DNA of 64,000 bases from positions 6,661 to 70,660 of the forward strand of contig CAYIII010000002.1 in the NCBI GenBank assembly GCA_964363475.1, written 5' to 3'. A model generated the notes under the pieces. That model did not search any database. It worked only from the letters and a program-made list of their open reading frames with translations, and had not been told where the DNA came from. The position numbers were made by a program, and so were the translations under genes. This document shows, in pieces, positions 43,029 to 64,000 of this stretch (the first letter of the stretch is position 1; each line of letters opens with the position of its first letter). This stretch comes from an uncultured Candidatus Saccharibacteria bacterium. GTDB taxonomy: Bacteria > Patescibacteriota > Minisyncoccia > UBA6257 > UBA11618.

Positions 43029-43029
43029 A

Positions 43030-43557
43030 ATGATTTTTACAAAAACATCAATTAACGGTTTATATGTTATTGAATTAGAACCTAAAATGGATGAACGAGG
43101 TTATTTTTTAAGAGTTTTTTGCCAGGACGAATTCAAAAATGCCGGTCTTAATTATAATATAATAAACACAAATCGTTCTTTCAGCAGATATAAGGGCACT
43201 GTAAGAGGCCTTCATTTTCAAAAAGAGCCAATGGCCGAAGTAAAAATTGTTCAATGTTTAAGGGGTAGGATATTTGATGTGGTTGTTGATTTAAGAACAG
43301 AGTCATCAACCTATAAGCAGTGGTTTGGAATAGAATTAACTGAAAATAATAATAAAATGCTTTATGTGCCCAAGGGATTTGCTCATGGCATACAAACTTT
43401 ATCGGATAATTGTATTTTAGAATATTTTATAAATCAGTTCTATTCTCCACAACATGAAGGTGGATTTCTTTGGAATGACCCGGCTTTTAAAATTATTTGG
43501 CCATTGCCAGTTTCTGTAATGTCAGAAAGAGATAAAAAATGGCGTTTATTTAATTAA
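43030..43557 (+). CDS. NDP-4-keto-6-deoxy-sugar 3,5-epimerase (RmlC/DmhB-like cupin)
   Basis: 175 aa; LYVIELEPKMDERGYFLRVF...VRGLHFQ...FAHGIQTL...YSPQHEGGF. Confidence 0.8.
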   Translation: MIFTKTSINGLYVIELEPKMDERGYFLRVFCQDEFKNAGLNYNIINTNRSFSRYKGTVRGLHFQKEPMAEVKIVQCLRGRIFDVVVDLRTESSTYKQWFGIELTENNNKMLYVPKGFAHGIQTLSDNCILEYFINQFYSPQHEGGFLWNDPAFKIIWPLPVSVMSERDKKWRLFN

Positions 43558-43560
43558 TTT

Positions 43561-44541: not shown

Positions 44542-44545
44542 TAAA

Positions 44546-46996: not shown

Positions 46997-47065
46997 TTGC
47001 GCGCCACTCCTTTCAAGGAACTTCTTGCTAGGAGCACTGTAAGGTATTACAATCTACTGGTCAAT

Positions 47066-47941
47066 ATGAGAATTTTTGTTACAGGCGGTACTGGTTTTAT
47101 TGGTAGCCATGTAATTGATTTATTGAAAAAGGAAAAGCAGGAACTATTGTTATTGTCTAGAAAAAATAATAAAAGACCCTTTATTAAAGGCAATCTCAAT
47201 TCTATTCAAAAATGGAAAGATAAGTTGATTGAGTTTAGACCTGAAGCGACTATACATTTAGCTTGGGAAAATACTCCTCATGGTAGCGCTTCCAAACATA
47301 GCTCTTTGGACAGCGCTGGTAACTTAACTTATGGACTTAATTTAATTAAAGCCCTTACTGAAACTGGTTGTAAAAAAATTTTAGCAACAGGAAGCTGTTG
47401 GGAATATGGCAGGTCTTTTGGAAAATTAGAAGAAATCAGTTCGGTAGATTATTCTAATTCCTTTGTTATTGCCAAAAATTGCTTACATTTTTTGGGTAGA
47501 AAGATAGCTGAAGAAAATAATATGCAGTTTATTTGGACAAGACTTTTTTTTGTTTATGGTCCGGGACAAAGACGTCAATCTATAATTCCTTATCTTTTTG
47601 ATTGTTATAATAGAAATTTAAAGCCGGATATTAAAAATCCATTTAATAAAAATGACTTTGTTTATGTAGAAGATGTAGTAGAGGCAATCTGGGAAATATT
47701 AAGAAATAATAATTCAAGCTCCATTTATAACATTGGCACAGGACATTCGGTGTCAATTGAAAAAATTGCCAATATTATCTATGGTACTAGCAAGAAAGAA
47801 TTATTAAATAAAGGTTCCCAAAATAAACCTACTTGTGATTTTTATGCAAACATTGCCAAAATTAAAAAAGATATCGGATGGTACCCCAAAATTAGCATTG
47901 AAGCAGGAATTAAAGAGCTCAAAGAAATTAACGGTATCTGA
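47066..47941 (+). CDS. SDR-family NAD(P)-dependent nucleotide-sugar reductase/epimerase
   Basis: Start taken at MRIFVTGGTGFIGSHV. The longer ORF beginning at 46970 overlaps the HD gene on the opposite strand. Confidence 0.65.
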   Translation: MRIFVTGGTGFIGSHVIDLLKKEKQELLLLSRKNNKRPFIKGNLNSIQKWKDKLIEFRPEATIHLAWENTPHGSASKHSSLDSAGNLTYGLNLIKALTETGCKKILATGSCWEYGRSFGKLEEISSVDYSNSFVIAKNCLHFLGRKIAEENNMQFIWTRLFFVYGPGQRRQSIIPYLFDCYNRNLKPDIKNPFNKNDFVYVEDVVEAIWEILRNNNSSSIYNIGTGHSVSIEKIANIIYGTSKKELLNKGSQNKPTCDFYANIAKIKKDIGWYPKISIEAGIKELKEINGI

Positions 47942-49631: not shown

Positions 49632-50479
49632 AAGTCATTATTACCGGTTCAGAAGGTTTTATTGGTAAGGAGCTTTCAAAACAATGCCGTAAACTCGGTC
49701 ATAAAGTTGTTGGTATAGATTTAATAAATGGTTTAGATATAAGATCTGCTGATATAGCAGACCACTTGCCTATTAACTCGGACGTACTAATTCATCTCGC
49801 CGCTCTTGCTCAACCCAAACAGTGTTTGAATAATGCGAAAAGTTGTTTTGATAATAACATTTTAGGAACAGTTAATATTTTTGAGGCCGCTATGATAAAA
49901 AAAGTAAAACATTTTATTTTTGCTTCCAGTGAATGGATTTATGGAGATTTTAATTCTAATAAGGAACTTTTAGAAGATTCTTTTATTGATTTAAAATCTA
50001 TTAATAGCGAATACGCCCTATCTAAACTTGTCTCCGAATGTTATCTAAAACAGTATTATCTTAAATATTTAATACCGACTACTATTTTACGCTTTAGTAT
50101 AGTTTATGGACCAGACAATAAACACCAAACCGCAGTTGAATCTTTATTTAATTCTATTAAAATAGGTAATAAAGTTAGCGTTGGTTCTCTAAAAACAGCT
50201 AGAAGATTTATCCACGTGGAAGATGTTGCTTCGGGGATTATTACCAGTTTTTCAAAAAAAAGGTTGGGATTTGAAATTTATAATTTATCATATAATAAAT
50301 TAATTGCTTTAAAAGAAATTATAGAAACTAGCGCCAAGCTTTTAAGAGTTAAACCTACGATAATAGAATTAGACCCAAACAACTTTATTATTAGAAATCC
50401 ATCTAATAATAAATTTAAGAAAATATTTAAATGGAAACCAAAAATTGATTTAAAAACAGGATTAAAAACTTTAAATTAA
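49628..50479 (+). CDS. SDR-family NAD-dependent epimerase/reductase
   Basis: 283 aa; ITGSEGFIGKEL, YALSK (YxxxK). Confidence 0.7.
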   Translation: MKVIITGSEGFIGKELSKQCRKLGHKVVGIDLINGLDIRSADIADHLPINSDVLIHLAALAQPKQCLNNAKSCFDNNILGTVNIFEAAMIKKVKHFIFASSEWIYGDFNSNKELLEDSFIDLKSINSEYALSKLVSECYLKQYYLKYLIPTTILRFSIVYGPDNKHQTAVESLFNSIKIGNKVSVGSLKTARRFIHVEDVASGIITSFSKKRLGFEIYNLSYNKLIALKEIIETSAKLLRVKPTIIELDPNNFIIRNPSNNKFKKIFKWKPKIDLKTGLKTLN

Positions 50480-51636: not shown

Positions 51637-52379
51637 TTATAAATATGGACCCAATTAAAGCGTTTCAATTAGAAAGAGAAGGTAACATAAAAAAATTAGG
51701 AAAAAATAAGGAGCTTAAAAAAATAGCCGAAAATTTTATTATAAAATCCAGCAAGATTAAATATGTTTATAATTTCAATTGGCTAGGCAGGCCGATTATC
51801 CAGTTTCCACAGGAGATAGTCGCTATACAAGAAATTATTTGGTCCGTAAAGCCAGATTTAATTATTGAAACAGGTATTGCGCATGGCGGGTCAATTATTC
51901 TATCAGCATCCATATTAGAATTAATTGGCAAAAACGGACTTGTGGTAGGAATTGACATTGATATTAGAAAACATAATAAGAAACTAATTAAAGCGCACTT
52001 TTTGTTTAAAAGGATTCGGATGTTAGAGGGCTCATCTATTGATATGGACATATATAATCAAGCAAAAAAAATTACTCAAGACAAAAAGAAGGTTATGGTT
52101 TTTTTAGATTCCAATCATACTTATAATCATGTTTGGCAAGAATTGTGTTTATATTCTAAATTAGTAAGTAAAAATAGTTATATTGTAGTTTTTGATACTG
52201 TTACCGAAATAATACCAAAAGAAATTTCTAAAAATAGACCTTGGGGGAAAGGTAATAATCCAAAAACAGCTGTTGATAGGTTTTTAAGAGAGAATAAAAA
52301 TTTTGTAGTAGACAAAAATATTAATAATAAATTATTGATTACTACCAATCCCGGCGGATATTTAAAAAAAATAAGCTAA
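51633..52379 (+). CDS. CmcI/'cephalosporin hydroxylase'-family SAM methyltransferase (sugar O-methyltransferase type)
   Basis: 248 aa; PDLIIETGIAHGGSIILSA...VVGIDIDIRKHN. Confidence 0.65.
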   Translation: MIINMDPIKAFQLEREGNIKKLGKNKELKKIAENFIIKSSKIKYVYNFNWLGRPIIQFPQEIVAIQEIIWSVKPDLIIETGIAHGGSIILSASILELIGKNGLVVGIDIDIRKHNKKLIKAHFLFKRIRMLEGSSIDMDIYNQAKKITQDKKKVMVFLDSNHTYNHVWQELCLYSKLVSKNSYIVVFDTVTEIIPKEISKNRPWGKGNNPKTAVDRFLRENKNFVVDKNINNKLLITTNPGGYLKKIS

Positions 52380-52380
52380 A

Positions 52381-53238
52381 ATGAACCGACCATTAGTTAG
52401 TATAGGAATGGCAATATATAACGAAGAAAGATTTCTTTCTCAAACTCTGGACTCATTATTAGCTCAAGATTATTCTAATCTGGAAGTTATTATCTGTGAT
52501 AATGTTTCTACTGATAAAACTGGAGGAATAGCTCAAGAATACTCTAAAAAAGATAATCGTATTAAATATTATCTTAACGAAAGCAATGTCGGCGGAACAA
52601 GAAACTATAACAAAGTATTTTTTCTATCTTCCGGAGAATATTTTATGTGGGTTGGCGGACATGATTTGTATGATAAAAGTTTTATTTCCTCTTGCGTAGA
52701 AATTTTAGAAAAAGATAAAAATGTGGTTCTGGTGTATTCTTTAACAAATATTATTGATGATTTAAATAATAAAACTGGGTCACTGTCTCATCATATAGAT
52801 ACTCGTTCTCTAAATCCTTTATTGAGATTTCATTTATTTTTTTATTATTTAACGAAGGTTCACCCCACCCATGGCCTAATAAGATACGATTCAATAAAAA
52901 GAACCGGTCTCTATAAAAAAGTATTAAATCCAGACAATATGCTTTTTAGTCAATTAGCCTTAATGGGAGAATTTGCTCATATACCCAAATTTTTATTTTA
53001 TTTTCGTACAATTAGGCCCAAAGAAACCGGTTGGGAAACTACCCTGAGACACATAAAAGACATATATAGTCCAAGGCATCAAAATTATCCTTATATTTTT
53101 TATACATTACATCAGTTTTATTATCATGTTCTCTCTATTTATGAAGCTCCTGTAAGTTGGTACTATAAGCCAATTCTTGTTTTTATACTTATTTTCGAAG
53201 GTCTTCTATTACGCATAAGAATAGCTATGAAAATTTAA
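52381..53238 (+). CDS. GT2 glycosyltransferase, tandem paralog 1 of 4
   Basis: 285 aa; SIGMAIYNEERFLSQTLDSLLAQDYSNLEVIICDNVSTDKTG. Confidence 0.75.
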   Translation: MNRPLVSIGMAIYNEERFLSQTLDSLLAQDYSNLEVIICDNVSTDKTGGIAQEYSKKDNRIKYYLNESNVGGTRNYNKVFFLSSGEYFMWVGGHDLYDKSFISSCVEILEKDKNVVLVYSLTNIIDDLNNKTGSLSHHIDTRSLNPLLRFHLFFYYLTKVHPTHGLIRYDSIKRTGLYKKVLNPDNMLFSQLALMGEFAHIPKFLFYFRTIRPKETGWETTLRHIKDIYSPRHQNYPYIFYTLHQFYYHVLSIYEAPVSWYYKPILVFILIFEGLLLRIRIAMKI

Positions 53239-53241
53239 AAG

Positions 53242-54129
53242 ATGAATAATAAACCATTGGTTAGCATAGGAATGCCTGTTTTCAACGAAGAAAGATTTCT
53301 TTCTCAAACATTAGATTCATTATTGGCTCAAGATTATTCTAATCTGGAAATTATTATTTGTGATAATATTTCTACTGATAAAACTGGGGAAATAGTTCAG
53401 GAATATGAAAAAAAAGATAACCGTATTAAATATTATCTTAATAAGAATAACATTGGCTTATTAAGAAATTCTAATAAAGTATTCACTTTGTCTTCCGGAA
53501 AGTATTTTATGTTAGTTGGTGGACACGATTTGTATGATAAAAGCTTTATTTCCTCTTGCGTAGAAATTTTAGAAAAAGATAGAAATGTAGTTTTGGTGTA
53601 TGCATTAACATATTTCATTGATGATTTAAATAATAAGATTGGGGCTTGGTCTAATCGCCTAGATACCCGTTCTTTAAATCCTTTATTAAGATATCATTTA
53701 TTCTTTTATTATTTATTGAGGATTCATTATATTCATGGATTGATGAGACGCGATTTAATAAAAAAGACTGATTTTTTCAAAAATACGGTAAATGCTGATT
53801 GTATGCTCATAAGCCGCTTGTCTTTAATAGGCGAATTTACTTATATACCAAAATTTTTATTTTATTATCGCATGGTTAGACCAAAAGAAACTGGTTCGGA
53901 AAATATTCAGAAACAAATAAGAGATATATATAGTAAAAAACACCAAAATCACTTCTACATCTTTTATCTTCTGCACCAATTTTATTATCATATTCTTCTT
54001 ATTTATAAAGCTCCTGTAGCTTGGTATTATAAGCCAATTATTATTTTTATACTTATTTTTGCGTTTTTTTCATTACGTATAAGGTTGATTATCAAAAATT
54101 TAAAACATGAACAATCGCTCATTGGTTAG
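53242..54129 (+). CDS. GT2 glycosyltransferase, tandem paralog 2 of 4
   Basis: 295 aa; SIGMPVFNEERFLSQTLDSLLAQDYSNLEIIICDNISTDKTG. Confidence 0.75.
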   Translation: MNNKPLVSIGMPVFNEERFLSQTLDSLLAQDYSNLEIIICDNISTDKTGEIVQEYEKKDNRIKYYLNKNNIGLLRNSNKVFTLSSGKYFMLVGGHDLYDKSFISSCVEILEKDRNVVLVYALTYFIDDLNNKIGAWSNRLDTRSLNPLLRYHLFFYYLLRIHYIHGLMRRDLIKKTDFFKNTVNADCMLISRLSLIGEFTYIPKFLFYYRMVRPKETGSENIQKQIRDIYSKKHQNHFYIFYLLHQFYYHILLIYKAPVAWYYKPIIIFILIFAFFSLRIRLIIKNLKHEQSLIG

Positions 54130-54991
54130 TATAGGACTTCCCGTTTTCAACGAAGAAAGATTTCTTTCTCAGACACTGGACTCATTATTGGCTCAAGATT
54201 ATTCTAATCTGGAAATTATTATTTGTGATAACGCTTCTACTGATAAGACCGGGGAAATAGCCCAAGAATATGCTAGAAAAGATAGCCGTATTAAATATCA
54301 TCTTAATGAAAGTAATATTGGCGGAACAAGAAATTTTAATAAAGTATTTCTCTTGTCTTCCGGAGAATATTTTATGTGGGCAGGCGGACATGATTTGTAT
54401 GATAAAAGTTTTGTTTGTAAGTGTTTAAATATGTTTAAGGTAGAAAATAAAGTGGTATTAGTATATCCGATAACATCGTCAATAGATTGCGAAAATAATA
54501 ATTTAGGAACAATGCCAGGAAGATTGGATACGAGGGATTTGGGCATATCTCGTAAATTACACTGTATCCTTTGGGGAATACCCAACGGCAACCCCGTGTA
54601 TGGATTAATTAAAAGAAGCGCTATGGAGAAAACATTGTTATTCCAAAATATTTTAGGAATGGACTTAGTGTTTCTTTTCGAACTGTCTTTAGTTGGTGAT
54701 TTTGCTCATATTTCGGAAAAACTTTTTTACAGAAGAGAGGTTCATCCTGAAGAAAAAAACGGGGGCGCTAAACAGAGGCGCTTAAATGATACATATTTAA
54801 AAAAAATAAACGGCGCTAGTTTATTGCCTTATTGGTACTTAGTTTATAAAAAGTTAATAGTAATCAAAAAAGTTAATTTAAATAAATTAAAAAAAATAGG
54901 TCTTTTTGTATCCATTCTATTTAATTTAATTATTATATATGGATTAGCAATGTTGAGGGACTTAAAAAGAATATGGAAAAAAATAATCTAA
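54107..54991 (+). CDS. GT2 glycosyltransferase, tandem paralog 3 of 4
   Basis: 294 aa; SIGLPVFNEERFLSQTLDSLLAQDYSNLEIIICDNASTDKTG; overlaps paralog 2 by 23 nt. Confidence 0.75.
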   Translation: MNNRSLVSIGLPVFNEERFLSQTLDSLLAQDYSNLEIIICDNASTDKTGEIAQEYARKDSRIKYHLNESNIGGTRNFNKVFLLSSGEYFMWAGGHDLYDKSFVCKCLNMFKVENKVVLVYPITSSIDCENNNLGTMPGRLDTRDLGISRKLHCILWGIPNGNPVYGLIKRSAMEKTLLFQNILGMDLVFLFELSLVGDFAHISEKLFYRREVHPEEKNGGAKQRRLNDTYLKKINGASLLPYWYLVYKKLIVIKKVNLNKLKKIGLFVSILFNLIIIYGLAMLRDLKRIWKKII

Positions 54992-56268
54992 CCAAAAGTA
55001 ACATAGAATCAATTAATAGTTTAGGGCAATTTTATCATGGTCACTGGGATTTTAATGGGGGCTCTATTAACCACGAAGAAGGTATGAGGGGCAGGGCTGA
55101 TTTTCTTTTAAGAAAAGTACAAGAAATAATAAAAAATAATTTCAGTAATAATGAGATTAAAAAAGCGTCTATTATTGACATTGGATGTTATGACGGCTGG
55201 ATTACTCATCAATTAAGTCACTTACCCTTTAAGGAAATAATTGGTATTGAGCCAAGAATAAATAATATTACAAAGGGTAAAATGATAAGAAAAATTTTAA
55301 ACATTAAGACACGCGTAAAATTTAAACAAGATTCTTTAGAATCATTAGCAAAACATAAAAAACAATTTGATATAGTTCTTTGTCTTGGGGTACTACATCA
55401 TTGTGAGTCCATTTTTTTAGCGTTGAAACAATTAGATAAAATATCAAAAAAAATACTTGTAATTAGCACGATTTGTTTGCCGTCAAAATTCATTACAGAA
55501 AATATTAAAAATTATATTGAATTAAAGGATGTCGTTTATTTTAATCAAAAAAAAATATATGGTTTAACAGGGCAAAAATATGAGTCCGCATATTCTGATG
55601 GGTCAACATTTAATAATACAGTAGTTAGCATCCCCTCTCTTGAATCCTTAATTATGTACCTTAATGTTCTTGATTATGATTATAAAATCATTGCAAATCA
55701 CGATGACTTTAGTAAGTCCATTCCTAAGGACCCCAGAATCTCTCAAGAAATATTAATTTGTGCTGTAAAAAGAGAAGAAAATAAAAAATTAAATTATATG
55801 AATAACCCCATAAAAGATTATGAACAGGGCTTAATAGAGACCAATATTCAGTCCAATTATATATTACCAATATTTGATTATATTTGTTTAAAAAAAAGAG
55901 ATGTCAAAATGAATTTGATGGTAAAAAAAATAATTGCGTATATTGATTTTCCGGATGATAAAAAATTAAAAAATATATTTAATTTCTTTAAAAATATTTA
56001 TCAACAAGAAATTATTAAGAATTTGAAGTATAATCCTGCTGATAAAATTGGTCTTGAATGGGGAAAAATACTATACTCGCAAAAAAAATATAACGAGGCC
56101 ATTCAAGTTTTACAAAGCATAACTCAAAGATTAAATACTGATTGGCGATGTGTTTACCGTTCTTTTTATTTACTAAAAATAATATATGAGAAAATCGGAG
56201 ATAATAAAAAGGCAGAATATTATCACAGATTATGTAAAAATTGTAATCCCAATTTCCCTCTTTTATGA
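54973..56268 (+). CDS. Class I SAM-dependent methyltransferase with helical C-terminal extension
   Basis: 431 aa; IIDIGCYDGWITHQL motif I. Confidence 0.6.
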   Translation: MEKNNLTKSNIESINSLGQFYHGHWDFNGGSINHEEGMRGRADFLLRKVQEIIKNNFSNNEIKKASIIDIGCYDGWITHQLSHLPFKEIIGIEPRINNITKGKMIRKILNIKTRVKFKQDSLESLAKHKKQFDIVLCLGVLHHCESIFLALKQLDKISKKILVISTICLPSKFITENIKNYIELKDVVYFNQKKIYGLTGQKYESAYSDGSTFNNTVVSIPSLESLIMYLNVLDYDYKIIANHDDFSKSIPKDPRISQEILICAVKREENKKLNYMNNPIKDYEQGLIETNIQSNYILPIFDYICLKKRDVKMNLMVKKIIAYIDFPDDKKLKNIFNFFKNIYQQEIIKNLKYNPADKIGLEWGKILYSQKKYNEAIQVLQSITQRLNTDWRCVYRSFYLLKIIYEKIGDNKKAEYYHRLCKNCNPNFPLL

Positions 56269-57125
56269 AATTAGTTAATATAGGGGTTCCCGCTTTGAAT
56301 GAAGAAAGATTTCTTTCTCAGACACTGGACTCATTATTGGCTCAAGATTATTCCAATCTGGAAATTATTATTTGTGATAACGCTTCTACTGATAAGACCG
56401 AAGAAATATCTTGTAAATATGCGGGAAAAGATAGTCGCATTAAATATTTTAAAAATAAAGAACGATTATCTGGGCCAGAAAATTGGAATAGAGCCTTTCA
56501 ATTATCATCAAGTAAATATTTCATGTGGGCTAGTGGGCATGATTTATATGATAAAAGTTTTGTTTCTTCTTGTATGGAAATTTTAGAGAAGGAAGAAAAT
56601 GTGACTCTGGCTTATTCTTTAACTTATTCAATAGATGAATATAACAATAAATTACAAATTATACCGCAATACCTTGACACTAGAACATTAAATTTAATAT
56701 CAAGATTTAATAAGTTTATATTGGCTTCCAATAATTCTAGTTGTATACTTACTGGTTTAATAAGGTCAGAATCAATTAGAAAAACTCATTTAATGCAAAA
56801 TACATTGGCGGCAGACACGCTTTTTTTAAGTGAATTATCTTTATTGAGCTATTTTGCTCAAACACAAAAACCATTATATTATCGTCGAGAAATAAGACCA
56901 CATGAAACTCCCATTATGACTTCAAAAAGAAGAATTAAGGATATTTTTAGAAATAAAAAAAAATATCCAGCAATATTTTATTTATTTCATTTAATATATA
57001 AATATCTTATAACGATATGGCGATCTTCAATAAATTTCGGCTATAAAATAATTCTTTCTTTTTTTATTTTTTTTGATTTAGGAATTTTATATTTTAAAAC
57101 AATACTAAAATATGTGAAAAAATGA
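56265..57125 (+). CDS. GT2 glycosyltransferase, tandem paralog 4 of 4
   Basis: 286 aa; NIGVPALNEERFLSQTLDSLLAQDYSNLEIIICDNASTDKTE. Confidence 0.75.
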   Translation: MKLVNIGVPALNEERFLSQTLDSLLAQDYSNLEIIICDNASTDKTEEISCKYAGKDSRIKYFKNKERLSGPENWNRAFQLSSSKYFMWASGHDLYDKSFVSSCMEILEKEENVTLAYSLTYSIDEYNNKLQIIPQYLDTRTLNLISRFNKFILASNNSSCILTGLIRSESIRKTHLMQNTLAADTLFLSELSLLSYFAQTQKPLYYRREIRPHETPIMTSKRRIKDIFRNKKKYPAIFYLFHLIYKYLITIWRSSINFGYKIILSFFIFFDLGILYFKTILKYVKK

Positions 57126-58282
57126 AGATTGCTTATATAATTAACGCCAGATTACCAACGGAAAAAGCGCATGGTTACCAAATTGTAAAAATGTGCGAAG
57201 CCTTCGCTATTCAAGGCGCTGATGTTTTATTGTGCCATCCGTTTCGCTTTCAAAATAAAGATTTACAAAATATGAATGTATTTGATTTTTACAAAGTTAA
57301 AAAAAACTTTAAAGTTATAACCACAGCGAATCTAGATTTGCTTCCGTTATCAGATAATAAAATATTATTTATTTTACAAACATTGCTTTGGGGAGCTTTT
57401 GCTGTATTTAAATTAAGAAAAGAAGAAATTGATATTTACTATACAAGAGACGCTTTAACAGTGTTTTGGATGTCAATTTTTGGTTTCCCGATTGTTTACG
57501 AAGAACATGTAATTCATAGTGGAGCAGGACAATTTTTATTAAGAATGGTTTCTCAAAAATCTTCCCTTAAATTAGTTGTAGTTTTAACAAATTTTATAAA
57601 AGATAATTTTATTAAGCTTGGATTTTCTCCAAATAAAGTAATTGTTGCCTCTGATGGTGTAGATTTGGCAATGTTTAAAAATTTGCCAGATAAAATTAAT
57701 TGCAGAAAGAAATTAGAATTGCCGGAATTTGTATTTATAGTGGGATATGTGGGCAGATTTAAGGTTTTTGGCAATCAAGAAAAAGGAATTCCCCAGCTAA
57801 TAGAAGCGATATCTATATTAAAAAATAAAAATATTTTATTACTATTGGTTGGCGGGCCACAAAACGCCGTAAATGATTATCTAAATTTAGCCAAAAAATT
57901 AAATGTCCGAAATATAAAAATTGTTAATCAAGTTCCGGTGTCAGAAGTCCCCTACTGGATGAGAGCTTGTGATGCGGTCACTATTCCGTGGACATGGACT
58001 AAATTTTCTGCTTATTACACTTCTCCGCTTAAGCTTTTTGAATACATGGCATCTAAAACGCCGATCATTGCCAGTAATTTACCATCATTAAGAGAAATTC
58101 TTAATGAGAAAAATTCAATTTTGGTTAAGCCGGGAGATTCTATGGATTTAGCCGATGGAATTGAAAAAGTTTTAAACAATAAAAATTTAGCCAATCAAAT
58201 ATCAGAACAAGCTTATAGGGATGTGCAAAATTACACTTGGGAAAACAGAGCTAGGAAGATATTATCATTTTTATGCATATAG
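57122..58282 (+). CDS. GT4-like (GT-B) glycosyltransferase
   Basis: 386 aa; C-terminal domain LKLFEYMASKTPIIASNLPS. Confidence 0.65.
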   Translation: MKIAYIINARLPTEKAHGYQIVKMCEAFAIQGADVLLCHPFRFQNKDLQNMNVFDFYKVKKNFKVITTANLDLLPLSDNKILFILQTLLWGAFAVFKLRKEEIDIYYTRDALTVFWMSIFGFPIVYEEHVIHSGAGQFLLRMVSQKSSLKLVVVLTNFIKDNFIKLGFSPNKVIVASDGVDLAMFKNLPDKINCRKKLELPEFVFIVGYVGRFKVFGNQEKGIPQLIEAISILKNKNILLLLVGGPQNAVNDYLNLAKKLNVRNIKIVNQVPVSEVPYWMRACDAVTIPWTWTKFSAYYTSPLKLFEYMASKTPIIASNLPSLREILNEKNSILVKPGDSMDLADGIEKVLNNKNLANQISEQAYRDVQNYTWENRARKILSFLCI

Positions 58283-59400
58283 TGCTTATTAGCAGTACTA
58301 ATGAAAATAATTCCGGCTGGGGCACAATAACACACAACCATTGTCTTGCGCTGTTAAGTAAAAAACAGTCTTTTATATTGCTCCTTCCTAAAAAGGCCAA
58401 AAGAATAGTTACCGCATATTCAAATAATATAGAATATATTTTACCTAACCTGCCTCTTAGTTTTAATTCTATTAAAGGAATTTTACAATTACCTCTTTTA
58501 TATAAAAAAATAAAAATTAATTATCAAAAACCCGCTGTTATCCATTCATTATTAGACTTCCCGTATGCCTTGCTTGGATGGCATATGGCTCGTAGAAATA
58601 AATTACCATTTATTTTTACTGCTCACGGAACATATTCTGTAAAACCTTTTTTTAATTTATTAGACAAAATTTTATTTACACCAGCATATAAAAATGCTAA
58701 TTCAATAATTGCAGTAAGCCAATTTACATCTAAAAATATAACGAAAGTTTCTGCTTATGAGAGGAAAATTAATATTATTAATAATCCCATTGCTTATACA
58801 AAAACAAAGATTCATCAAAATTATAATTTTTTAGGTTTTGCGCCTCCTAACTTTAAAATTATTTTAAGCGTTGGCCCTTTAAAGCCAAGAAAGGGTCACG
58901 AAATATTAATAAAAGCTTTTAACGAAGTTAATAGAATCATCGCTGATTCATGTTTAATTATTATAGGATCTGGTGATAATAATTTTTATAAAAATTTGAT
59001 TGATAATGATAAAAAACATTTAGTTTTTTTTATTCCTCAAGCTTCTTCTGAAGAATTGGCGTTTTGTTTTCAGCATTGCAGTGTTTTTGCAATGCTGCCA
59101 AAATACATTGACCATGAATTTGAGGGTTATGGATTGGTCTACTTAGAAGCCGGTTTATACAAGAAACCGGTTGTCGGCACTTTTTCAGGAGGAGTACCGG
59201 AAGCTGTAATTAATGGAAAAACTGGCATTTTGGTGTCAGAAAATGACGAAAAATCAACAGCGACGGCAATTATCAAAATATTACAAAATAAATATCTGGC
59301 AGAAAGCTTGGGTAATAATGGTTATAAATTGGCCAGGCAAAGAAATTGGGATGATTATATAAATAAAATTATAAAAATTTATGAATCTGTTTGTAGCTAG
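58273..59400 (+). CDS. GT4 glycosyltransferase
   Basis: 375 aa; GYGLVYLEAGLYKKPVVGTFSGGVPE. Confidence 0.75.
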   Translation: MHIVLISSTNENNSGWGTITHNHCLALLSKKQSFILLLPKKAKRIVTAYSNNIEYILPNLPLSFNSIKGILQLPLLYKKIKINYQKPAVIHSLLDFPYALLGWHMARRNKLPFIFTAHGTYSVKPFFNLLDKILFTPAYKNANSIIAVSQFTSKNITKVSAYERKINIINNPIAYTKTKIHQNYNFLGFAPPNFKIILSVGPLKPRKGHEILIKAFNEVNRIIADSCLIIIGSGDNNFYKNLIDNDKKHLVFFIPQASSEELAFCFQHCSVFAMLPKYIDHEFEGYGLVYLEAGLYKKPVVGTFSGGVPEAVINGKTGILVSENDEKSTATAIIKILQNKYLAESLGNNGYKLARQRNWDDYINKIIKIYESVCS

Positions 59401-60760
59401 CTTTCACTTTCTATCTTCAAGGAACTTTTTTACCACTGATGTGTTTAGCGCGCTAAAACAAAATAAAAAAATTAACCTAATAGTATTTGTTCCTAAAAGT
59501 AAATTAGATCTTTTACGAAATAATTATGAACATGAAAATGTCAAATTAGTTGGCATAGACGAACAACTTATTTTAGGCAGAAACTTTTCTAAATTTAAAT
59601 GGTTGAATTTTTTTTTAATCCCGACGCGCGCAGTAAGATTTAGAGCTCAGGAAAAATGGAATAGAGAAAGAACTTTTACGGGTCTTATAGAATTAGGGTT
59701 ATCTTATTTTTTGTCATTATTTTTATCAAAATTTAAGTTTGCAAGAAATATAGTAAGATATTTAGATAAAAAATTTGATAGATCGCCAATGTTGTTAGAA
59801 TATTTTAACAAATATAGACCAGAATATATTCTAGTAACTGACGTTTTTAATAATGCAGACATCTGTTTTCTAAAAGAAGCAGAGGTCAATAATGTGTTTT
59901 CTATGGGATTAGTTCGTTCTTGGGACAACACCACTACAAAGGGATTAATGAGGATAATTACTAATAAATTAATCGTTAACAATGAAATCATAAAAAATGA
60001 GGCCGTAAAATTTCATGATGTAAATCCTAGAGATATTTTTATTAGTGGAATTCCTCAATTTGATATATATTTTCGCAACGCATATAACACGCGTGAAGAG
60101 TTTTTTAAAGAAATTGGAGCCGATATTAATAAAAGATTAATATTATTTGCGCCCGCCGGATCTATTTTGTCAGATACAGATTGGCAGTTATGCCAAATAT
60201 TAAAAGATGGCTTGCGTAAAAAAATATTACCGAGCAACATTCAATTCTTAATTAGAAAACATCCTTTAGGGCATCCAGGGTTTTTAGAAAAATTTATAAC
60301 TGATAAAAATTTTTTAATAGAATGGCCCGGCACAAAACCCGAAAATAGCGACCATCCTAAAATAACAGAATTAATTAATAAGGACCAGAAACATTTAGTT
60401 AATTCTTTACACTATTCTGAAATGATAATTTATGTTAATTCTACGATTGGCATTGACTCTCTACCTTTTAATAAGCCACAGATAATGATTGAGTTTGATG
60501 GATGGGAAAAGAAACGTTATATTGAAAGCGTTAAACATTATCACGACGAGGAGCATATGCAGAAATATTTGCAAACAGGAGCAGTAAAAATAGCGAAAAC
60601 ACCAGAAGAGTTATTGCTTCTAATTAATATTTTCCTTAATAATCCCAAAATAGATGAAGAAAAAAGAAAGACGGCTATTAAAGAACAATTATATTATTCT
60701 GATGACCAATGTGGCAAAAGAGTTGCGAATTTCGTTTTAAAACAAATCAATAATTTATGA
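59381..60760 (+). CDS. GT-B-like transferase, possibly a TagB/TagF-type glycosyl/glycerophosphotransferase
   Basis: 459 aa; C-terminal MIIYVNSTIGIDSLPFNKPQIMIEFD resembles the LITDYSS...kP motif of CDP-glycerol glycerophosphotransferases; assignment is weak. Confidence 0.35.
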   Translation: MNLFVASFHFLSSRNFFTTDVFSALKQNKKINLIVFVPKSKLDLLRNNYEHENVKLVGIDEQLILGRNFSKFKWLNFFLIPTRAVRFRAQEKWNRERTFTGLIELGLSYFLSLFLSKFKFARNIVRYLDKKFDRSPMLLEYFNKYRPEYILVTDVFNNADICFLKEAEVNNVFSMGLVRSWDNTTTKGLMRIITNKLIVNNEIIKNEAVKFHDVNPRDIFISGIPQFDIYFRNAYNTREEFFKEIGADINKRLILFAPAGSILSDTDWQLCQILKDGLRKKILPSNIQFLIRKHPLGHPGFLEKFITDKNFLIEWPGTKPENSDHPKITELINKDQKHLVNSLHYSEMIIYVNSTIGIDSLPFNKPQIMIEFDGWEKKRYIESVKHYHDEEHMQKYLQTGAVKIAKTPEELLLLINIFLNNPKIDEEKRKTAIKEQLYYSDDQCGKRVANFVLKQINNL

Positions 60761-61749
60761 AAAAAAATAAAGTAGCTTTAATAACGGGAATTAATGGACA
60801 AGACGGTTCTTATTTAGCGGAATTATTATTATTAAAGAATTATGAAGTGCACGGCATTATTCGCAGGTCTTCAGTAATAAATACCGGACTCATAAAACAT
60901 ATAATGCCAAAATTATTTTTGCATTACGGCGACTTAATAGACGCCAATACAATAAGAAAATTAGTTTATAAAATCAAACCGAATGAAATCTACAATTTAG
61001 CGGCGCAATCACAAGTAAGAGTAAGTTTTGATATTCCCGAATATACCCTCAACGTTACTGGTTTGGGGCCGACAAGAATATTGGAAGCTATTAAGGATTT
61101 TGAGGACGGTGGCAACGAGAAAATAAAATTTTACCAAGCCAGTTCCAGCGAGATGTTTGGCAATACTTCGCCTCCGCAAAATGAAAAATCTTTATTTTTC
61201 CCGAGAAGCCCGTACGGATGCGCAAAACTCTTGGGTTATCATTCAACTTGTAATTATAGAGACGGATTTAATATTTTTGCGGTAAATGGGATTCTTTTTA
61301 ATCATGAATCCCCTCGTCGCGGCGAAGAATTCGTTACCAGAAAAATAACTTCCGGCGTAGCCAAAATTAAGGCCGGTCTAATGAAAAAAATTTCTTTGGG
61401 TAATTTAAGCGCCAAACGCGACTGGGGTTACGCTCCTGAATATATGGAGGCCGTTTGGTTGATGATGCAACAAGATAAGCCGGATGATTATGTTATTGGT
61501 ACTGGAGAAAGCCACTCAATTGAAGAATTTCTAGATGAATCATTTAAGGCGGTTGGCATTGATAAGTGGAAAAAATATGTTGAAATTAATTCGTCTTATT
61601 TCAGACCGACGGATGTTCATAATTTAGTTGCTGATTATAGTAAAGCCCAAAAAAAACTTGGCTGGTGTCCCAAAGTTAAATTTCATGATTTAGTAAAAAT
61701 TATGGTGGAAGCTGATTTAAAACATATAAAAAATGATAAAACTGGTTAA
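60757..61749 (+). CDS. gmd: GDP-mannose 4,6-dehydratase
   Basis: 330 aa; ALITGINGQDGSYLAELLLLKNYEVHGIIRRSS...LHYGDLID...NLAAQSQV...FNHESPRRG: canonical Gmd motifs. Confidence 0.9.
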   Translation: MKKNKVALITGINGQDGSYLAELLLLKNYEVHGIIRRSSVINTGLIKHIMPKLFLHYGDLIDANTIRKLVYKIKPNEIYNLAAQSQVRVSFDIPEYTLNVTGLGPTRILEAIKDFEDGGNEKIKFYQASSSEMFGNTSPPQNEKSLFFPRSPYGCAKLLGYHSTCNYRDGFNIFAVNGILFNHESPRRGEEFVTRKITSGVAKIKAGLMKKISLGNLSAKRDWGYAPEYMEAVWLMMQQDKPDDYVIGTGESHSIEEFLDESFKAVGIDKWKKYVEINSSYFRPTDVHNLVADYSKAQKKLGWCPKVKFHDLVKIMVEADLKHIKNDKTG

Positions 61750-62899
61750 ATCTACATTTTATAAAGAAAAAGAAACTAAAAAAAAGCTAATTAATTTTAT
61801 CAAGAAATCCGCCATTCTTAGCATGAATAGCGAGTGCCGCAAATTTGAAGATGCATTTGCTGAAAAGCAAGGCAGAAGACATGCGGTTTTTGTTAGTAGT
61901 GGCAGTAGCGCTAATTTAGTTTTAATACAATCACTCCTTAATTTAAATTGGCTTAGAAAGAATTATGTTATTGGCGTATCAGCACTAACCTGGCCAACAA
62001 ATATAATGCCACTTATTCAATTGGGGTTAAAAGTCCTATTCTTAGATTGCGAAATGAAAACTATTAATGTTTCACCGGATATATTTAAAAGAAAAATTAA
62101 AAATTTAGACGGCCTTTTTTTAACTAATGTTTTGGGATTTAGCGATCATATAGAAACAATAGCTAGTTTGTGTAAAAAAAATGATATTATTTTTTTGGAA
62201 GATAATTGTGAATCTTTGGGTTCTAAAGTTAACGGTAAGTTATTAGGTAATTTTGGATTGGCTGCCACCTTTTCTTTCTTTGTCGGTCATCATCTGTCTA
62301 CCATTGAAGGCGGTATGATTGTTACAGATAATTCAGAATTATATCATATGCTTTTAAAGGTTCGGGCGCATGGCTGGGACAGAGATTTGCCAAAAGAAGA
62401 AATGTATAATATCAGATTAGTTCATAATATTAATAATTTTTTTTCTCGTTATACTTTTTATGATTTGGCTTATAATGCTAGACCGACAGAAATAAGCGGT
62501 TTTTTGGGCAATAATCAACTGCGCTACTGGGACGAAATAGTTAATAAACGCTTTAATAATTTCAAAAAGTTTCATGACGCGCAAAGAAAAAATGATGATT
62601 TTATTTTATTAGATATGAATCATATGGATTTGGTATCCAATTTCGCAATGCCAGTTATTTGTAAAAATAAGGATTGTTTTGAGAAATATCAAAAGAGATT
62701 TGAAAAAAATAATGTAGAAATTAGACCTATTATAGCTGGTAATATTATGGAACAACCGTTTTATTTAAAATATAAAGATAAAAATGGCATTAATTGTAAA
62801 AATACCCGACTTATTCATGAAAACGGATTTTACTTTGGCAATAATCCGGAATTAACAACAAAAGAAATTAAATTTTTATGCAATTTGCTCAAAAAATGA
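61733..62899 (+). CDS. DegT/DnrJ/EryC1-family PMP-dependent NDP-4-keto-6-deoxy-sugar 3-dehydratase (ColD/E1-like; His replaces the Schiff-base Lys)
   Basis: 388 aa; at the position of the conserved SF..K....GEGG lysine the sequence reads FSFFVGHHLSTIEGG, as I recall it for the ColD/DdhC dehydratases; adjacent to gmd. Confidence 0.65.
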   Translation: MIKLVKSTFYKEKETKKKLINFIKKSAILSMNSECRKFEDAFAEKQGRRHAVFVSSGSSANLVLIQSLLNLNWLRKNYVIGVSALTWPTNIMPLIQLGLKVLFLDCEMKTINVSPDIFKRKIKNLDGLFLTNVLGFSDHIETIASLCKKNDIIFLEDNCESLGSKVNGKLLGNFGLAATFSFFVGHHLSTIEGGMIVTDNSELYHMLLKVRAHGWDRDLPKEEMYNIRLVHNINNFFSRYTFYDLAYNARPTEISGFLGNNQLRYWDEIVNKRFNNFKKFHDAQRKNDDFILLDMNHMDLVSNFAMPVICKNKDCFEKYQKRFEKNNVEIRPIIAGNIMEQPFYLKYKDKNGINCKNTRLIHENGFYFGNNPELTTKEIKFLCNLLKK

Positions 62900-63840
62900 T
62901 TAATTTGAAAAATAAAAAAATTTTATTGACAGGCGGAGGTGGATTTTTGGGAAATTATGTGTTTGAAGCATTAATAAAGAGGAGGGTCAAGAAAGAAAAT
63001 ATATTTATCCCCCGCTCACAGGAATATGATCTAAGAAAGAGAAGTGTATGTAATCAGGTGGTGCGTAATAAAGATATTATTATACATCTAGCCGCCCTTG
63101 TTGGAGGCATAGGTTTCAACCAAAAAAATCCCGCATCAGTTTTTTATGATAATGCTTCAATGGCGCTTAATTTAATTGATGCCGCTTATAAATCTGGTAT
63201 TGAAAAGTTTGTTGGTATTGGAAGCGTGTGTTCTTATCCTAAATTTTCAAAAATACCATTTGTGGAAACAGACTTGTGGCTTGGTTATCCGGAAGAAACG
63301 AATGCTCCCTATGGTTTAGCTAAAAAAATGATGCTGGTTCAATCACAGGCCTATCATAAGCAGTATGGATTTAATGCTATTCATTTATTAATGATTAATT
63401 TATATGGACCTGGAGATAATTTTGACCCGCAGAGTTCTCATGTTGTGCCAGCTTTAATTAAAAAAATAGTTAATGCTAAAAAAAATAAGTTGCCATTTAT
63501 AGAAATATGGGGAAGCGGTAAAGCTACTAGAGAGTTTTTGTATGTTGAAGATGCGGCGAAGGGAATTATATTGGCCACAGAAAAATATGATAAATCAGAT
63601 CCGGTTAATATTGGATGCAACGCAGAAACTTCTATAAAAGATTTAGTTGGTTTAATTTGTAAAATAATTAAATATAAAGGCGAAGTTCGTTGGGATAAAA
63701 CTAAACCCGACGGACAACCAAGAAGGATGTTAAATGCTGACTTAGCGAAAAAAGAATTCGGGTTTATCAGCAAAACTCAATTAAATAAAGGTTTAAAGAA
63801 AACAATTAATTGGTATATAAAATCTAAATCTCTTGTCTAA
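62878..63840 (+). CDS. GDP-L-fucose synthase / GDP-L-colitose synthase-like (Fcl/ColC family SDR)
   Basis: 320 aa; ILLTGGGGFLG Rossmann, YGLAK (YxxxK); follows gmd and the 3-dehydratase. Confidence 0.7.
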   Translation: MQFAQKMINLKNKKILLTGGGGFLGNYVFEALIKRRVKKENIFIPRSQEYDLRKRSVCNQVVRNKDIIIHLAALVGGIGFNQKNPASVFYDNASMALNLIDAAYKSGIEKFVGIGSVCSYPKFSKIPFVETDLWLGYPEETNAPYGLAKKMMLVQSQAYHKQYGFNAIHLLMINLYGPGDNFDPQSSHVVPALIKKIVNAKKNKLPFIEIWGSGKATREFLYVEDAAKGIILATEKYDKSDPVNIGCNAETSIKDLVGLICKIIKYKGEVRWDKTKPDGQPRRMLNADLAKKEFGFISKTQLNKGLKKTINWYIKSKSLV

Positions 63841-64000
63841 ATATTTTATTTTCTTTTAATAACATTTGTTCCGAACGTAATAATGGAAGAGAGTGATAAT
63901 CATTATTGCCTAAATAGGCTGCCCACCAAGAAAAGGTGGATCCGCCACCTATTATCGATTGAGCATTTTTAAGCATCCAAAAATCAAAAATATAATCTGG
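63823..64000 (-). CDS. Partial CDS (C-terminal fragment): GT11 alpha-1,2-fucosyltransferase-like glycosyltransferase
   Basis: Minus-strand translation ...PDYIFDFWMLKNAQSIIGGGSTFSWWAAYLGNNDYHSL...; (S)TFSWWAAYL is, as I recall it, the C-terminal signature of family GT11 fucosyltransferases. Stop overlaps the end of the Fcl-like gene by about 17 nt. Confidence 0.4.

Follow-up and report, generated by a model that had tools for sequence, protein, structure and literature searches.

A predicted GDP-L-colitose cassette in a Parcubacteria-group genome of the Candidate Phyla Radiation

A predicted colitose-type gene cassette and its host

Three overlapping genes, gmd, a DegT-family gene and an Fcl-family SDR gene, lie on the forward strand at positions 60757 to 63840 of the window, the 64,000-nucleotide stretch of DNA analyzed here. 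This cassette, carried by a Parcubacteria-group genome, probably makes GDP-L-colitose, which the product of a neighboring GT11 gene would transfer onto a surface glycan. As a prediction this is well supported; the pathway is a known one, and the host group is new. The Gmd-ColD-ColC chemistry is textbook, and elsewhere colitose, a rare sugar, has been described chiefly in the lipopolysaccharide (LPS) of Gram-negative pathogens. The contig also encodes DnaE, which assigns the host to the Parcubacteria group within the Candidate Phyla Radiation (CPR), bacteria thought to lack an outer membrane, in line with what the initial annotation had supposed of this organism. The host is a tiny groundwater bacterium and not an LPS-bearing Gram-negative.

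In the proposed route, Gmd would oxidize and dehydrate GDP-D-mannose to GDP-4-keto-6-deoxy-D-mannose. The PMP cofactor of the ColD-type enzyme would then condense with the C4 keto group to a Schiff base, and His186 would serve as the acid/base in expelling the C3 hydroxyl; hydrolysis would release GDP-4-keto-3,6-dideoxy-D-mannose and glutamate would regenerate PMP, a step predicted to proceed without an iron-sulfur cluster or a reductase partner. The Fcl-family SDR would epimerize C5 via a Cys/His pair and reduce C4 with NAD(P)H to give GDP-L-colitose. Finally, the GT11 enzyme would probably attach colitose, and perhaps fucose as well, to a surface glycan. The surrounding low-GC cluster would assemble this glycan, a putative non-LPS wall or envelope glycopolymer. 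The analysis establishes the protein families, the catalytic residues, the fold, the coupling of the genes and their conserved synteny; the substrates, the product, the donor used by the GT11 enzyme and the kind of acceptor polymer are inferred.

Organization of the cassette and identity of gmd

All four features of the initial annotation lie at the coordinates given there, and the family matches of the three cassette genes are too strong to be due to chance. The first gene (60757 to 61749, forward strand; 330 amino acids) was confirmed as gmd, as initially called. Its product exceeded the curated cutoff of the NCBI equivalog model TIGR01472 (457.5 bits against 415; E value, 2.8e−137), scored 414 bits with PF16363 and was 46% identical to the Gmd of the E. 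coli O55 O-antigen cluster. It overlaps by 17 nt the DegT-family gene (61733 to 62899, forward strand; 388 amino acids), predicted to encode a ColD-type, PMP-dependent GDP-4-keto-6-deoxymannose 3-dehydratase. The SDR gene follows on the same strand (62878 to 63840; 320 amino acids from the first ATG) and overlaps colD by 22 nt from that ATG, or by 4 nt (ATGA, with the colD stop codon) from position 62896, which is the probable start. The gmd-colD-fcl cassette is translationally coupled. In E. coli O55, by contrast, colD and colC are separated from gmd, manB and manC across gnd. The window and its downstream extension, 73 kb in all, contained a single gmd reaching the equivalog cutoff, a single ColD-like gene and a single close homolog of Fcl/ColC, so that the donor of the GT11 enzyme must derive from the cassette operon.

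The DegT-family protein is of the ColD type

The DegT-family protein matched Pfam DegT_DnrJ_EryC1 (PF01041; E value, 2.8e−54). Its nearest solved relative is ColD (WbdK) of E. coli O55 (PDB 2GMS, 2GMU, 2R0T, 3B8X and 3GR9), which has the same length and shares 36% identity over 377 amino acids (2gms: E value, 7e−64; 219 bits). Scores against other solved structures were 124 bits for E1, at most 77 bits for aminotransferases and about 53 bits for perosamine synthases. The top 12 Foldseek matches in the PDB for an AF2 model of the protein (pLDDT, 87) were all ColD chains, with TM scores of 0.88 to 0.89.

The motif FSFFVGHHLSTIEGG occupies residues 180 to 194 (62270 to 62314), with the codon for His186 at 62288 to 62290. 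In HMMER alignments, His186 aligned with ColD His188, the column that holds the Schiff-base Lys in aminotransferases. Alignments to ColD and its engineered variants placed the first His of the "GHH" in this column, which is fixed by the variant structures themselves (Lys in H188K and S187N/H188K, Asn in H188N). The His was invariant in the closest homologs (120 of 120), as were the residues at the positions of ColD W88, D159, E162, S183, H215, W217, R219, N248, R250, E329 and R331. Of these, H215, W217, R219, R250 and E329 are positions at which E1 differs. ColD Ser187, in contrast, is Gly throughout the CPR-type clade, which stands apart from the ColD group of enterobacteria and alphaproteobacteria (55 to 65% identical to E. 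coli ColD).

These data upheld the reported substitution of His for Lys; the alignment that would have refuted the initial annotation, with Lys in the Schiff-base position, was not what we observed. They also bear on the reading of the protein as a conventional sugar aminotransferase (for instance, GDP-perosamine synthase) making a 4-amino-4,6-dideoxy sugar. Pfam membership and the aminotransferase names that NCBI gives to relatives point that way, but genuine E. coli ColD also carries the generic name "aminotransferase" at NCBI, so the name has no weight; with His in the Schiff-base column of every homolog and perosamine synthases scoring far below ColD, we consider an aminotransferase very unlikely.

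The other PMP-dependent 3-dehydratase in which His replaces Lys is E1 (DdhC/AscC/RfbH; PDB 3BCX and 3BB8), CDP-6-deoxy-L-threo-D-glycero-4-hexulose 3-dehydrase, of the abequose, tyvelose and ascarylose routes. The best NCBIfam match of the DegT-family protein was in fact the RfbH model, and relatives bear the automatic JGI name "CDP-6-deoxy-D-xylo-4-hexulose-3-dehydrase." Yet the score of 192 bits fell below the RfbH cutoff of 423, as does that of genuine ColD (263 bits). E1 is 437 amino acids long, acts on a CDP-sugar, contains a four-Cys [2Fe-2S] site and requires an E3 reductase, none of which applies here. Alignment confirmed that the cysteine-rich insert of E1 (CYCAPGCDNTC) is absent, and no ferredoxin-reductase (E3-like) domain was detected in the cluster open reading frames of the 73 kb scanned against Pfam or NCBIfam. 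The sole match in the 73 kb to the glucose-1-phosphate cytidylyltransferase model, a nucleotidyltransferase, reached 83 bits against a cutoff of 300, and the flanking gmd and fcl encode GDP-sugar enzymes. An E1-type CDP-hexose 3-dehydrase is accordingly the most improbable of the readings considered. The replacement of Lys by His and the lack of an Fe-S cluster are reviewed as defining features of ColD in comparisons with E1 and SpnQ (PMC8987622).

The reductase and the possibility of a fucose operon

The third protein is predicted to be a 5-epimerase/4-reductase acting as a GDP-L-colitose synthase. It scored 271 bits with the NCBIfam Fcl model (E value, 1.4e−80), under the equivalog cutoff of 500, which genuine E. 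coli ColC also fails to reach (304 bits). Its top PDB matches were GDP-L-fucose synthases (E value, 1e−57), and the equivalents of the Fcl (WcaG) catalytic residues S107, C109, Y136, K140 and H179 were all retained. This Ser-Cys-Tyr-Lys-His set, the extended SDR family and a position next to colD are shared with ColC (WbdJ) of E. coli O55 and Y. pseudotuberculosis O:6. The family assignment of the initial annotation thus stood, but its ColC label did not: about as similar to E. coli ColC (35% identity) as to E. coli Fcl (34%), the protein is not assignable by sequence to a dedicated ColC and belongs to a parcubacterial Fcl group. In three of four sampled genomes, orthologs directly follow gmd with no DegT gene, a difference from ColC. 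A parcubacterial Fcl ortholog recruited for ColC-like work is therefore the better description, and colD appears to have been inserted, as a module, into an operon for fucose.

It follows that some GDP-fucose may be made too, as a co-product or even as the main product. In the stronger form of this alternative, the operon makes GDP-L-fucose, the GT11 enzyme is an ordinary α-1,2-fucosyltransferase, the ColD-like enzyme takes minor, conditional or no flux, and fucose or a fucose/colitose mixture is displayed. Besides the plain gmd-fcl pairs, it would account for the thousands of SDR relatives (64 to 70% identical) named GDP-L-fucose synthase and for the canonical Fcl (50 to 56% identical to E. 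coli Fcl) that follows ColD in most other CPR loci. However, a ColD-type gene with all catalytic positions intact overlaps both the gmd and fcl frames, the gmd-colD-fcl order recurs in many genomes, and true ColC is homologous to Fcl, with 40% identity. The product of Gmd would also meet ColD before the reductase; with the 3-dehydratase gene between gmd and fcl, a 3-deoxy ketosugar is the expected substrate to reach the SDR. A fucose operon is rather unlikely, though the most probable of the alternatives, and GDP-L-colitose is the product we favor.

The GT11 gene

Convergent with the SDR gene, and overlapping it by 17 nt, is the 3′ end of a GT11 glycosyltransferase gene (63824 to 64000, reverse strand; last 58 codons plus stop). 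Its translation contains GGGSTFSWWAAYLG, with STFSWWAAYL encoded at 63911 to 63940 on the reverse strand. An ENA contig aligned to window positions 51733 to 64000 with one mismatch in 12,268 nt, and the complete gene (278 amino acids), which extends beyond the window, was recovered from near-identical contig L001 (12092 to 12928, reverse strand). The GT11-like assignment first made from the partial gene was borne out, as the full-length protein passed Pfam PF01531 (36.2 bits; cutoff, 23.9).

GT11 is classically a fucosyltransferase family, which would suit a fucose operon. A colitose precedent comes from WbgN of E. coli O55, reportedly identified by Wu et al. in 2016 as an α-1,2-colitosyltransferase of this family. 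WbgN, a GT11 α-1,2-colitosyltransferase, accepts GDP-fucose well too (PMC12723683), a further point for the fucose alternative. The two proteins share PF01531, aligned HxRRGD and S(T/S)FSWW motifs and a cluster with gmd, colD and an Fcl-family reductase gene, but their similarity is weak (26% identity; E value, 2e−10). We therefore propose the protein as a candidate α-1,2-colitosyl/fucosyltransferase, whose donor would be set by the cassette. A GT11 gene occurs with the cassette in only 3 of 80 related loci (L008, L030 and L041).

The surrounding cluster and GDP-mannose supply

The cassette lies in a low-GC cluster spanning ∼38 kb of the window and 9 kb downstream, which encodes GT2 and GT4 transferases, methyltransferases and a TagB/TagF-family glycerophosphotransferase-like enzyme (PF04464 Glyphos_transf, 36.3 bits; cutoff, 22.1). 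The gene for the last (59381 to 60760, forward strand) is directly upstream of gmd; the two overlap by 4 nt at the gmd start and probably belong to one operon. The same family adjoins the cassette in L008 (77% identity) and a gmd-fcl pair in a Yanofskybacteria contig (L088).

The initial annotation had proposed looking for manB and manC; a search of the 73 kb for homologs of ManB, ManC and Gmm found none, and the sole candidate of this kind was an HddC/ManC-like nucleotidyltransferase well under cutoff. It forms part of an HddA/HddC-like module at 43561 to 46271. With this nucleotidyltransferase and an HddA-like kinase, the cluster encodes a second 4,6-dehydratase, RmlC, a C-methyltransferase and an acetolactate-synthase-like ThDP enzyme. 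Such genes could suit a 3-dehydratase that does not lead to colitose. The enzyme might act on another GDP-4-keto-6-deoxy sugar, such as a heptose supplied by the HddA/HddC-like module, or its 4-keto-3,6-dideoxy intermediate might be converted to another stereoisomer or to a branched sugar. The 36% identity of the clade to the assayed ColD leaves room for this, as do the ∼30 of 80 related loci in which gmd and Fcl-family genes are both missing within 6 kb, which suggest that the wider clade may not have a uniform substrate. Against it, colD is translationally coupled to a gmd that reaches the equivalog cutoff for GDP-mannose dehydratase, whereas the second dehydratase, 15 kb distant, falls short of it (164 against 415 bits); neither the ThDP enzyme nor its neighbors co-occurred with ColD-like genes in the 80 other loci; and the SDR retains the Cys/His pair for epimerization that is expected of an enzyme with an L-sugar product. 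We judge a different product to be unlikely, less so than a CDP-sugar or amino sugar, and retain colitose as the predicted one.

Distribution and synteny

The synteny of gmd, ColD-like and Fcl-family genes is recurrent. Of 36 relatives at least 57% identical, 27 had gmd within 1.2 kb, 31 had an Fcl-family SDR gene within that distance and 24 had both; the cultured Minisyncoccus archaeiphilus is included. The same gene order in so many genomes argues that the ColD-type gene is used and, with the ColD-type residues and fold, supports the original reading of the locus as a Gmd-ColD-reductase colitose route. The accompanying claim of novelty held in part: our literature search found no paper linking colitose with CPR bacteria, but the genes are already abundant in public CPR genomes. 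Close relatives of the cassette, whose ColD-like proteins are usually annotated as generic aminotransferases, occur in at least 593 species-representative genomes, mostly of Patescibacteria, and also in a few Streptomyces and archaeal MAGs.

A gmd-colD-fcl cassette with overlapping genes

The last 3.2 kb of the window comprises three same-strand ORFs followed by the opposite-strand 3′ end of a convergent gene. The first ORF is gmd (60757-61749, + strand, 330 amino acids), the second a DegT-family, ColD-like gene (61733-62899, + strand, 388 amino acids), and the third encodes an Fcl-family short-chain dehydrogenase/reductase (SDR) of 320 amino acids (62878-63840, + strand); the convergent gene is of the GT11 type (63824-64000, − strand) and continues past the window. 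A TagB/TagF-family glycerophosphotransferase-like gene (59381-60760, + strand) overlaps the start of gmd by 4 nt, gmd and the DegT gene overlap by 17 nt, and an ATGA at 62896 joins the stop codon of the DegT gene to an in-frame ATG of the SDR gene, such that the cassette genes are packed in a manner fit for translational coupling. Scans for consensus promoters and terminators across 59 to 64 kb returned site counts no higher than those of shuffled sequence. Both motifs quoted in the initial annotation were recovered: FSFFVGHHLSTIEGG occupies residues 180 to 194 of the DegT protein (62270-62314), and STFSWWAAYL is encoded at 63911-63940 (− strand).

A ColD-type route to GDP-colitose together with a GT11 transferase, as the initial annotation had put forward, here in a Candidate Phyla Radiation (CPR) bacterium, is the best-supported reading of this arrangement. 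We judge it rather more probable than its opposite, given that ColD is the nearest characterized protein to the DegT product, that the genes overlap, and that the synteny recurs in other genomes. The chemistry of such a pathway is already known, and the whole case made here is a prediction from sequence.

The identification of gmd stands, with the protein passing the TIGR01472 equivalog model (457.5 bits; cutoff, 415). Homologs of manB and manC, which it had been suggested to look for, were not detected: ManB, ManC, and Gmm of E. coli gave no tblastn match in the window or its extension. The sole candidate guanylyltransferase in the 73 kb (the window plus a ∼9-kb extension) is an HddC/ManC-like protein that scored far below cutoff. 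The O-antigen locus of O55:H7 strain CB9615 (NC_013941.1) carries gmd, gmm, manC, manB, the GT11 gene encoding WbgN, wzy, wzx, and two further glycosyltransferase genes, with ColC and ColD encoded beyond gnd. BLASTN of the 3-kb cassette against E. coli genomes matched only short 5′ fragments of gmd.

The DegT protein resembles ColD rather than E1 or aminotransferases

The DegT protein matched PF01041 (185 bits). Among solved relatives, E. coli ColD (2gms) scored highest (219 bits; E value, 7e−64), ahead of the CDP-hexose 3-dehydrase E1 (124 bits), a putative NDP-hexose 3-dehydratase (110 bits), and any aminotransferase (77 bits or less). ColD is thus the nearest characterized protein, yet identity to it is 36% over 377 amino acids, and proteobacterial ColD homologs form a tighter group separate from the clade of the DegT protein.

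As ColD structures in the PDB include the wild type and the H188N, H188K, and S187N/H188K variants, the catalytic column could be fixed without ambiguity. His186 of the query, the first His of GHH, aligned with H188 of 2gms, the Lys of 2r0t and 3gr9, and the Asn of 3b8x, and His occupied this column in all 120 closest homologs, which bears out the His-for-Lys substitution proposed earlier. The expected lack of a [2Fe-2S] motif was likewise confirmed: the E1 cysteine segment DCYCAPGCDNTC meets a gap or non-Cys residues of the DegT protein, whose eight Cys residues are scattered (positions 35, 106, 147, 159, 310, 315, 355, and 383). A review of nucleotide-sugar dehydratases (PMC8987622) gives His in place of Lys as a mark of the 3-dehydratases and distinguishes ColD from E1 and SpnQ by its lack of the [2Fe-2S] site. 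No E3-like reductase domain was found among the ORFs scanned in the 73 kb.

An AlphaFold (AF2) model built from 30 homologs (pLDDT, 87; pTM, 0.87) was compared with solved structures. The first 12 matches to this predicted fold were all ColD chains (TM score, 0.88 to 0.89), followed by E1 (0.83 to 0.86) and then aminotransferases. By family match and modeled fold, the protein is a fold-type I, DegT-family PLP/PMP enzyme.

A protein-collection search with the DegT protein returned at least 7,984 matches at an E value of 1e−20 or better. The best 120 of these were 59 to 100% identical and, where named, came from Doudnabacteria, Microgenomates, Peregrinibacteria, Saccharimonadales, the "Patescibacteria group," and the cultured Minisyncoccus archaeiphilus. 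Positions equivalent to ColD W88, D159, E162, S183, H215, W217, R219, N248, R250, E329, and R331 were invariant in these 120 homologs, and the position of Ser187 was Gly in 119 of them. Since E1 carries a different residue at six of the invariant positions (162, 215, 217, 219, 250, and 329), the clade follows ColD, not E1. Several of the invariant positions are reportedly cofactor or GDP contacts in the structures of Cook and Holden.

An ordinary aminotransferase, such as a perosamine synthase, would belong to the same family, but with His in the Lys column and perosamine synthases scoring about 53 bits against 219 for ColD, it is effectively excluded. The same applies to E1 (DdhC/RfbH), given the missing Cys insert and a score of 192 bits on the RfbH model (cutoff, 423), on which genuine ColD reached 263 bits. 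The predicted ColD-type activity is C3 deoxygenation of GDP-4-keto-6-deoxymannose with glutamate-dependent regeneration of PMP. At 36% identity to the assayed ColD, whether the substrate of this clade would be exactly that of ColD is a main uncertainty.

An Fcl ortholog probably acts as the colitose synthase

The SDR scored 271 bits on the NCBIfam Fcl equivalog model (NF047922), below the cutoff of 500, as did genuine ColC (304 bits). Its best solved relatives are GDP-L-fucose synthases (E value, 1e−57), and it holds the residues at Fcl S107, C109, Y136, K140, and H179, i.e., the Ser-Tyr-Lys triad and the Cys/His epimerization pair; these five were also kept in the SDRs of all but a handful of related loci. 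Pairwise identity was of no use as a discriminator, with 35% to ColC (174 bits) versus 34% to Fcl (192 bits).

The typical SDR after ColD in related loci is a canonical Fcl, 50 to 56% identical to E. coli Fcl and 40 to 45% identical to ColC, and that of Minisyncoccus reached 459 bits on the Fcl model. The SDR of the window is of a different, more divergent type common to 8 of 80 loci at 54 to 82% identity. A reverse search with this SDR recovered thousands of relatives, 64 to 70% identical, from Yanofsky-, Zambryski-, and Wolfebacteria and Paceibacterota, all named GDP-L-fucose synthase at NCBI. The contexts of four such relatives (loci L088 to L091) were sampled. Three (L088, L089, and L091) were plain gmd-SDR pairs with a 17-nt overlap and no DegT gene, and the fourth (L090) was a NUDIX-ColD-like-SDR arrangement, in which the DegT protein is 48% identical to that of the window and carries FSFFVGHHMSTIEGG.

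The initial description of an Fcl/ColC-type reductase therefore held in part: the protein is an Fcl-family SDR with the full catalytic set, but the near-equal identities and the gmd-SDR pairs lacking colD in three of the four contexts gave no reason to file it as a member of the ColC lineage. Nevertheless, its function is probably that of ColC. Most simply, colD would be a module inserted in the gmd-fcl operon of this lineage, with the resident Fcl ortholog doing the job of ColC. Such a role is chemically reasonable, since ColC, too, is an Fcl homolog (40% identity) and a 3-deoxy substrate leaves only C5 to epimerize. GDP-fucose may also be formed to some extent, and how flux would divide between colitose and fucose is a main uncertainty.

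In the three plain pairs, fcl starts 17 nt ahead of the gmd stop codon, the same length as the gmd/colD overlap at 61733-61749 of the window. The junction may have been preserved when colD was inserted.

The GT11 transferase

An ENA contig (Hain_H51_01um, here L001) differs from the window by a single mismatch in 12,268 nt and supplied the whole of the convergent gene. The 278-amino-acid product passed PF01531 (GT11; 36.2 bits; gathering score, 23.9) and was 26% identical to WbgN (E value, 2e−10). Its motifs LHVRRGDF and STFSWWAAYL aligned with HIRRGDY and SSFSWWGAWL of WbgN, corresponding to the HxRRGD and SxFSWW signatures, and the assignment first made from the partial gene was thereby strengthened. 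PMC12723683, citing Wu et al. 2016, describes WbgN of E. coli O55 as a GT11 alpha-1,2-colitosyltransferase that also tolerates GDP-fucose, a direct precedent for the role proposed here. By analogy, GDP-colitose is a candidate donor only. Within the 73 kb, a single gmd reaches the equivalog cutoff, and there is a single ColD-like gene and a single close homolog of Fcl/ColC, so that no GDP-6-deoxyhexose donor for the GT11 enzyme is evident other than the product of the cassette. Only 3 of the 80 related loci had a GT11 gene close to the cassette, and it is not a conserved partner.

Distribution and naming of related loci

A scan with the DegT protein against one genome per species identified relatives in at least 593 genomes. 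Identity in the 80 best loci was 50 to 81%; by record label, 52 belonged to Patescibacteria lineages, 4 to unlabeled bacteria, 3 to Streptomyces, 3 to archaeal MAGs, 2 to Bacteroidota, and 1 to Caldisericia, with the remaining 15 assigned by record label alone to "uncultured Gammaproteobacteria," Burkholderiales, or Pseudomonadales (GC content, 0.32 to 0.50). Of 78 loci, 32 had gmd immediately upstream in the same orientation, and of 79 loci, 37 had an Fcl-family SDR immediately downstream. When only the 36 relatives of ≥57% identity were considered, 27 had gmd within 1.2 kb, 31 had the SDR at that distance, and 24 had both. M. archaeiphilus carries the gmd-DegT-SDR trio in its complete genome, and a gmd-ColD-Fcl trio was found in two Streptomyces species next to genes for a methyltransferase and a GT2. 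In about 30 of the 80 loci, neither gmd nor an Fcl-family partner lay within 6 kb, and thus the wider clade may be functionally mixed.

Members of the CPR-type ColD clade at 50 to 57% identity occur in Streptomyces (L033, L036, and L044), archaeal MAGs (L063, L064, and L084; Woesearchaeota type), and Chitinophaga (L086). The neighbors of the Streptomyces trio include BNR-repeat, methyltransferase, and GT2 genes, and these carriers are cultivable.

An NCBIfam scan gave no ColD- or ColC-specific match, the genuine E. coli enzymes included. At the O55 locus, RefSeq names WbgN an "alpha-1,2-fucosyltransferase," ColC a "GDP-L-fucose synthase family protein," and ColD a "DegT/DnrJ/EryC1/StrS family aminotransferase." Genuine ColD and ColC thus behave like the window proteins, whose generic or wrong names in public records are exactly what the real enzymes receive. 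Literature searches returned no relevant paper linking colitose, dideoxyhexose, or gmd with CPR/Patescibacteria, in keeping with the novelty claimed at the outset; the genes of the cassette, however, are common in public CPR genomes under uninformative names.

Host assignment and implications

The closest named relatives of the DnaE encoded on the same contig (62 to 64% identity) are from Harrisonbacteria, Liptonbacteria, and the "Parcubacteria group," which identifies the host as a Parcubacteria-group CPR bacterium; the initial annotation had supposed an organism that likely lacks an outer membrane. Record names suggest that it came from the 0.1-µm fraction of Hainich groundwater. To our knowledge, CPR bacteria have neither LPS nor an outer membrane. 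In Gram-negative O-antigens, colitose and the other 3,6-dideoxyhexoses are well known as immunodominant sugars.

We propose tentatively, at slightly less than even likelihood, that 3,6-dideoxyhexoses are no speciality of LPS: colD within a gmd-fcl operon could let many Patescibacteria place L-colitose on non-LPS surface glycopolymers (teichoic-acid-like or other envelope polymers), with a bona fide Fcl ortholog doubling as the colitose synthase, and the same may hold for some DPANN archaea and Streptomyces. If so, this class of sugars would reach beyond its known range into monoderm-like, ultra-small episymbionts and perhaps also into archaea and actinomycetes, and episymbiotic CPR cells would display a surface determinant that is both widespread and variable and that might bear on host attachment or phage evasion. 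A concrete function would also be given to thousands of genes labeled "DegT/DnrJ/EryC1/StrS aminotransferase" or mislabeled CDP-hexulose 3-dehydrase. The route to sugar diversification would be a simple one, in which a single 3-dehydratase gene placed in a gmd-fcl pair turns a fucose operon into a colitose operon. M. archaeiphilus, as a cultured CPR organism, offers a testable surface marker.

The surrounding glycan cluster

The first 24 kb of the window is housekeeping in content (PBP2-type transpeptidase, MraW, sigma factor, RNase III, NusB, DnaE, GatB, and TrmD). GC content is about 0.39 in this part (1-24000) versus about 0.30 in the glycan cluster (28000-64000); surface-polysaccharide loci that vary and are exchanged horizontally typically show such a drop. 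Starting near 26 kb, the cluster extends to the end of the window and for another 9 kb, with the cassette at its end; it spans at least 47 kb, a large share of a CPR genome of presumably roughly 1 Mb. Numerous GT2 and GT4 genes lie in it, along with methyltransferases, homologs of RmlC and RmlD, nonulosonic-acid-like genes, and a second sugar-nucleotide module. The TagB/F-type gene at the operon fits a teichoic-acid-like wall polymer, and a gene of this family also adjoins the gmd-fcl pair of a Yanofskybacteria contig (L088, 462-1841), which hints at deoxyhexoses decorating such a polymer.

The second sugar-nucleotide module (41790-50479, + strand) is separate from the cassette. Its genes encode a sugar C-methyltransferase (PF08421/PF08484), an RmlC that passes TIGR01221, an HddA-like GHMP kinase, a second NDP-sugar 4,6-dehydratase, an HddC/ManC-like nucleotidyltransferase, two SDRs, and an acetolactate-synthase-like ThDP enzyme. 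The last of these (47835-49631) is reminiscent of YerE, an enzyme that forms branched-chain sugars. Conversion of the ColD product by this enzyme into a branched, yersiniose-like sugar was considered and is unsupported, as the ThDP gene, the neighboring SDRs, and the nucleotidyltransferase were found in none of the 80 other ColD-like loci.

Directly downstream of the window end, a nonulosonic-acid-like module (L001, 12915-21140) includes a PseF-like cytidylyltransferase (163 bits; cutoff, 206) and a NeuB-like synthase (243 bits; cutoff, 400), along with a GT2, a 583-amino-acid B12/radical-SAM methyltransferase-like protein, an SDR, a methyltransferase, and two ORFs without an assigned family. 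A 466-amino-acid ORF inside or beside the cluster (24798-26198, − strand) had no family match. The product of a 714-amino-acid ORF (30821-32968, − strand) is hydrophobic and membrane-like, with a subthreshold PMT_2 (GT-C) match only, and on comparison was unrelated to the Wzy_C/TPR proteins flanking gmd-fcl in other Parcubacteria.

In the housekeeping part, a fatty-acid desaturase family protein (13626-14591, + strand; PF00487, 80.6 bits) is encoded between dnaE and a class II aminoacyl-tRNA synthetase gene. The host lineage is generally held to be unable to make its own lipids, and a desaturase is notable there.
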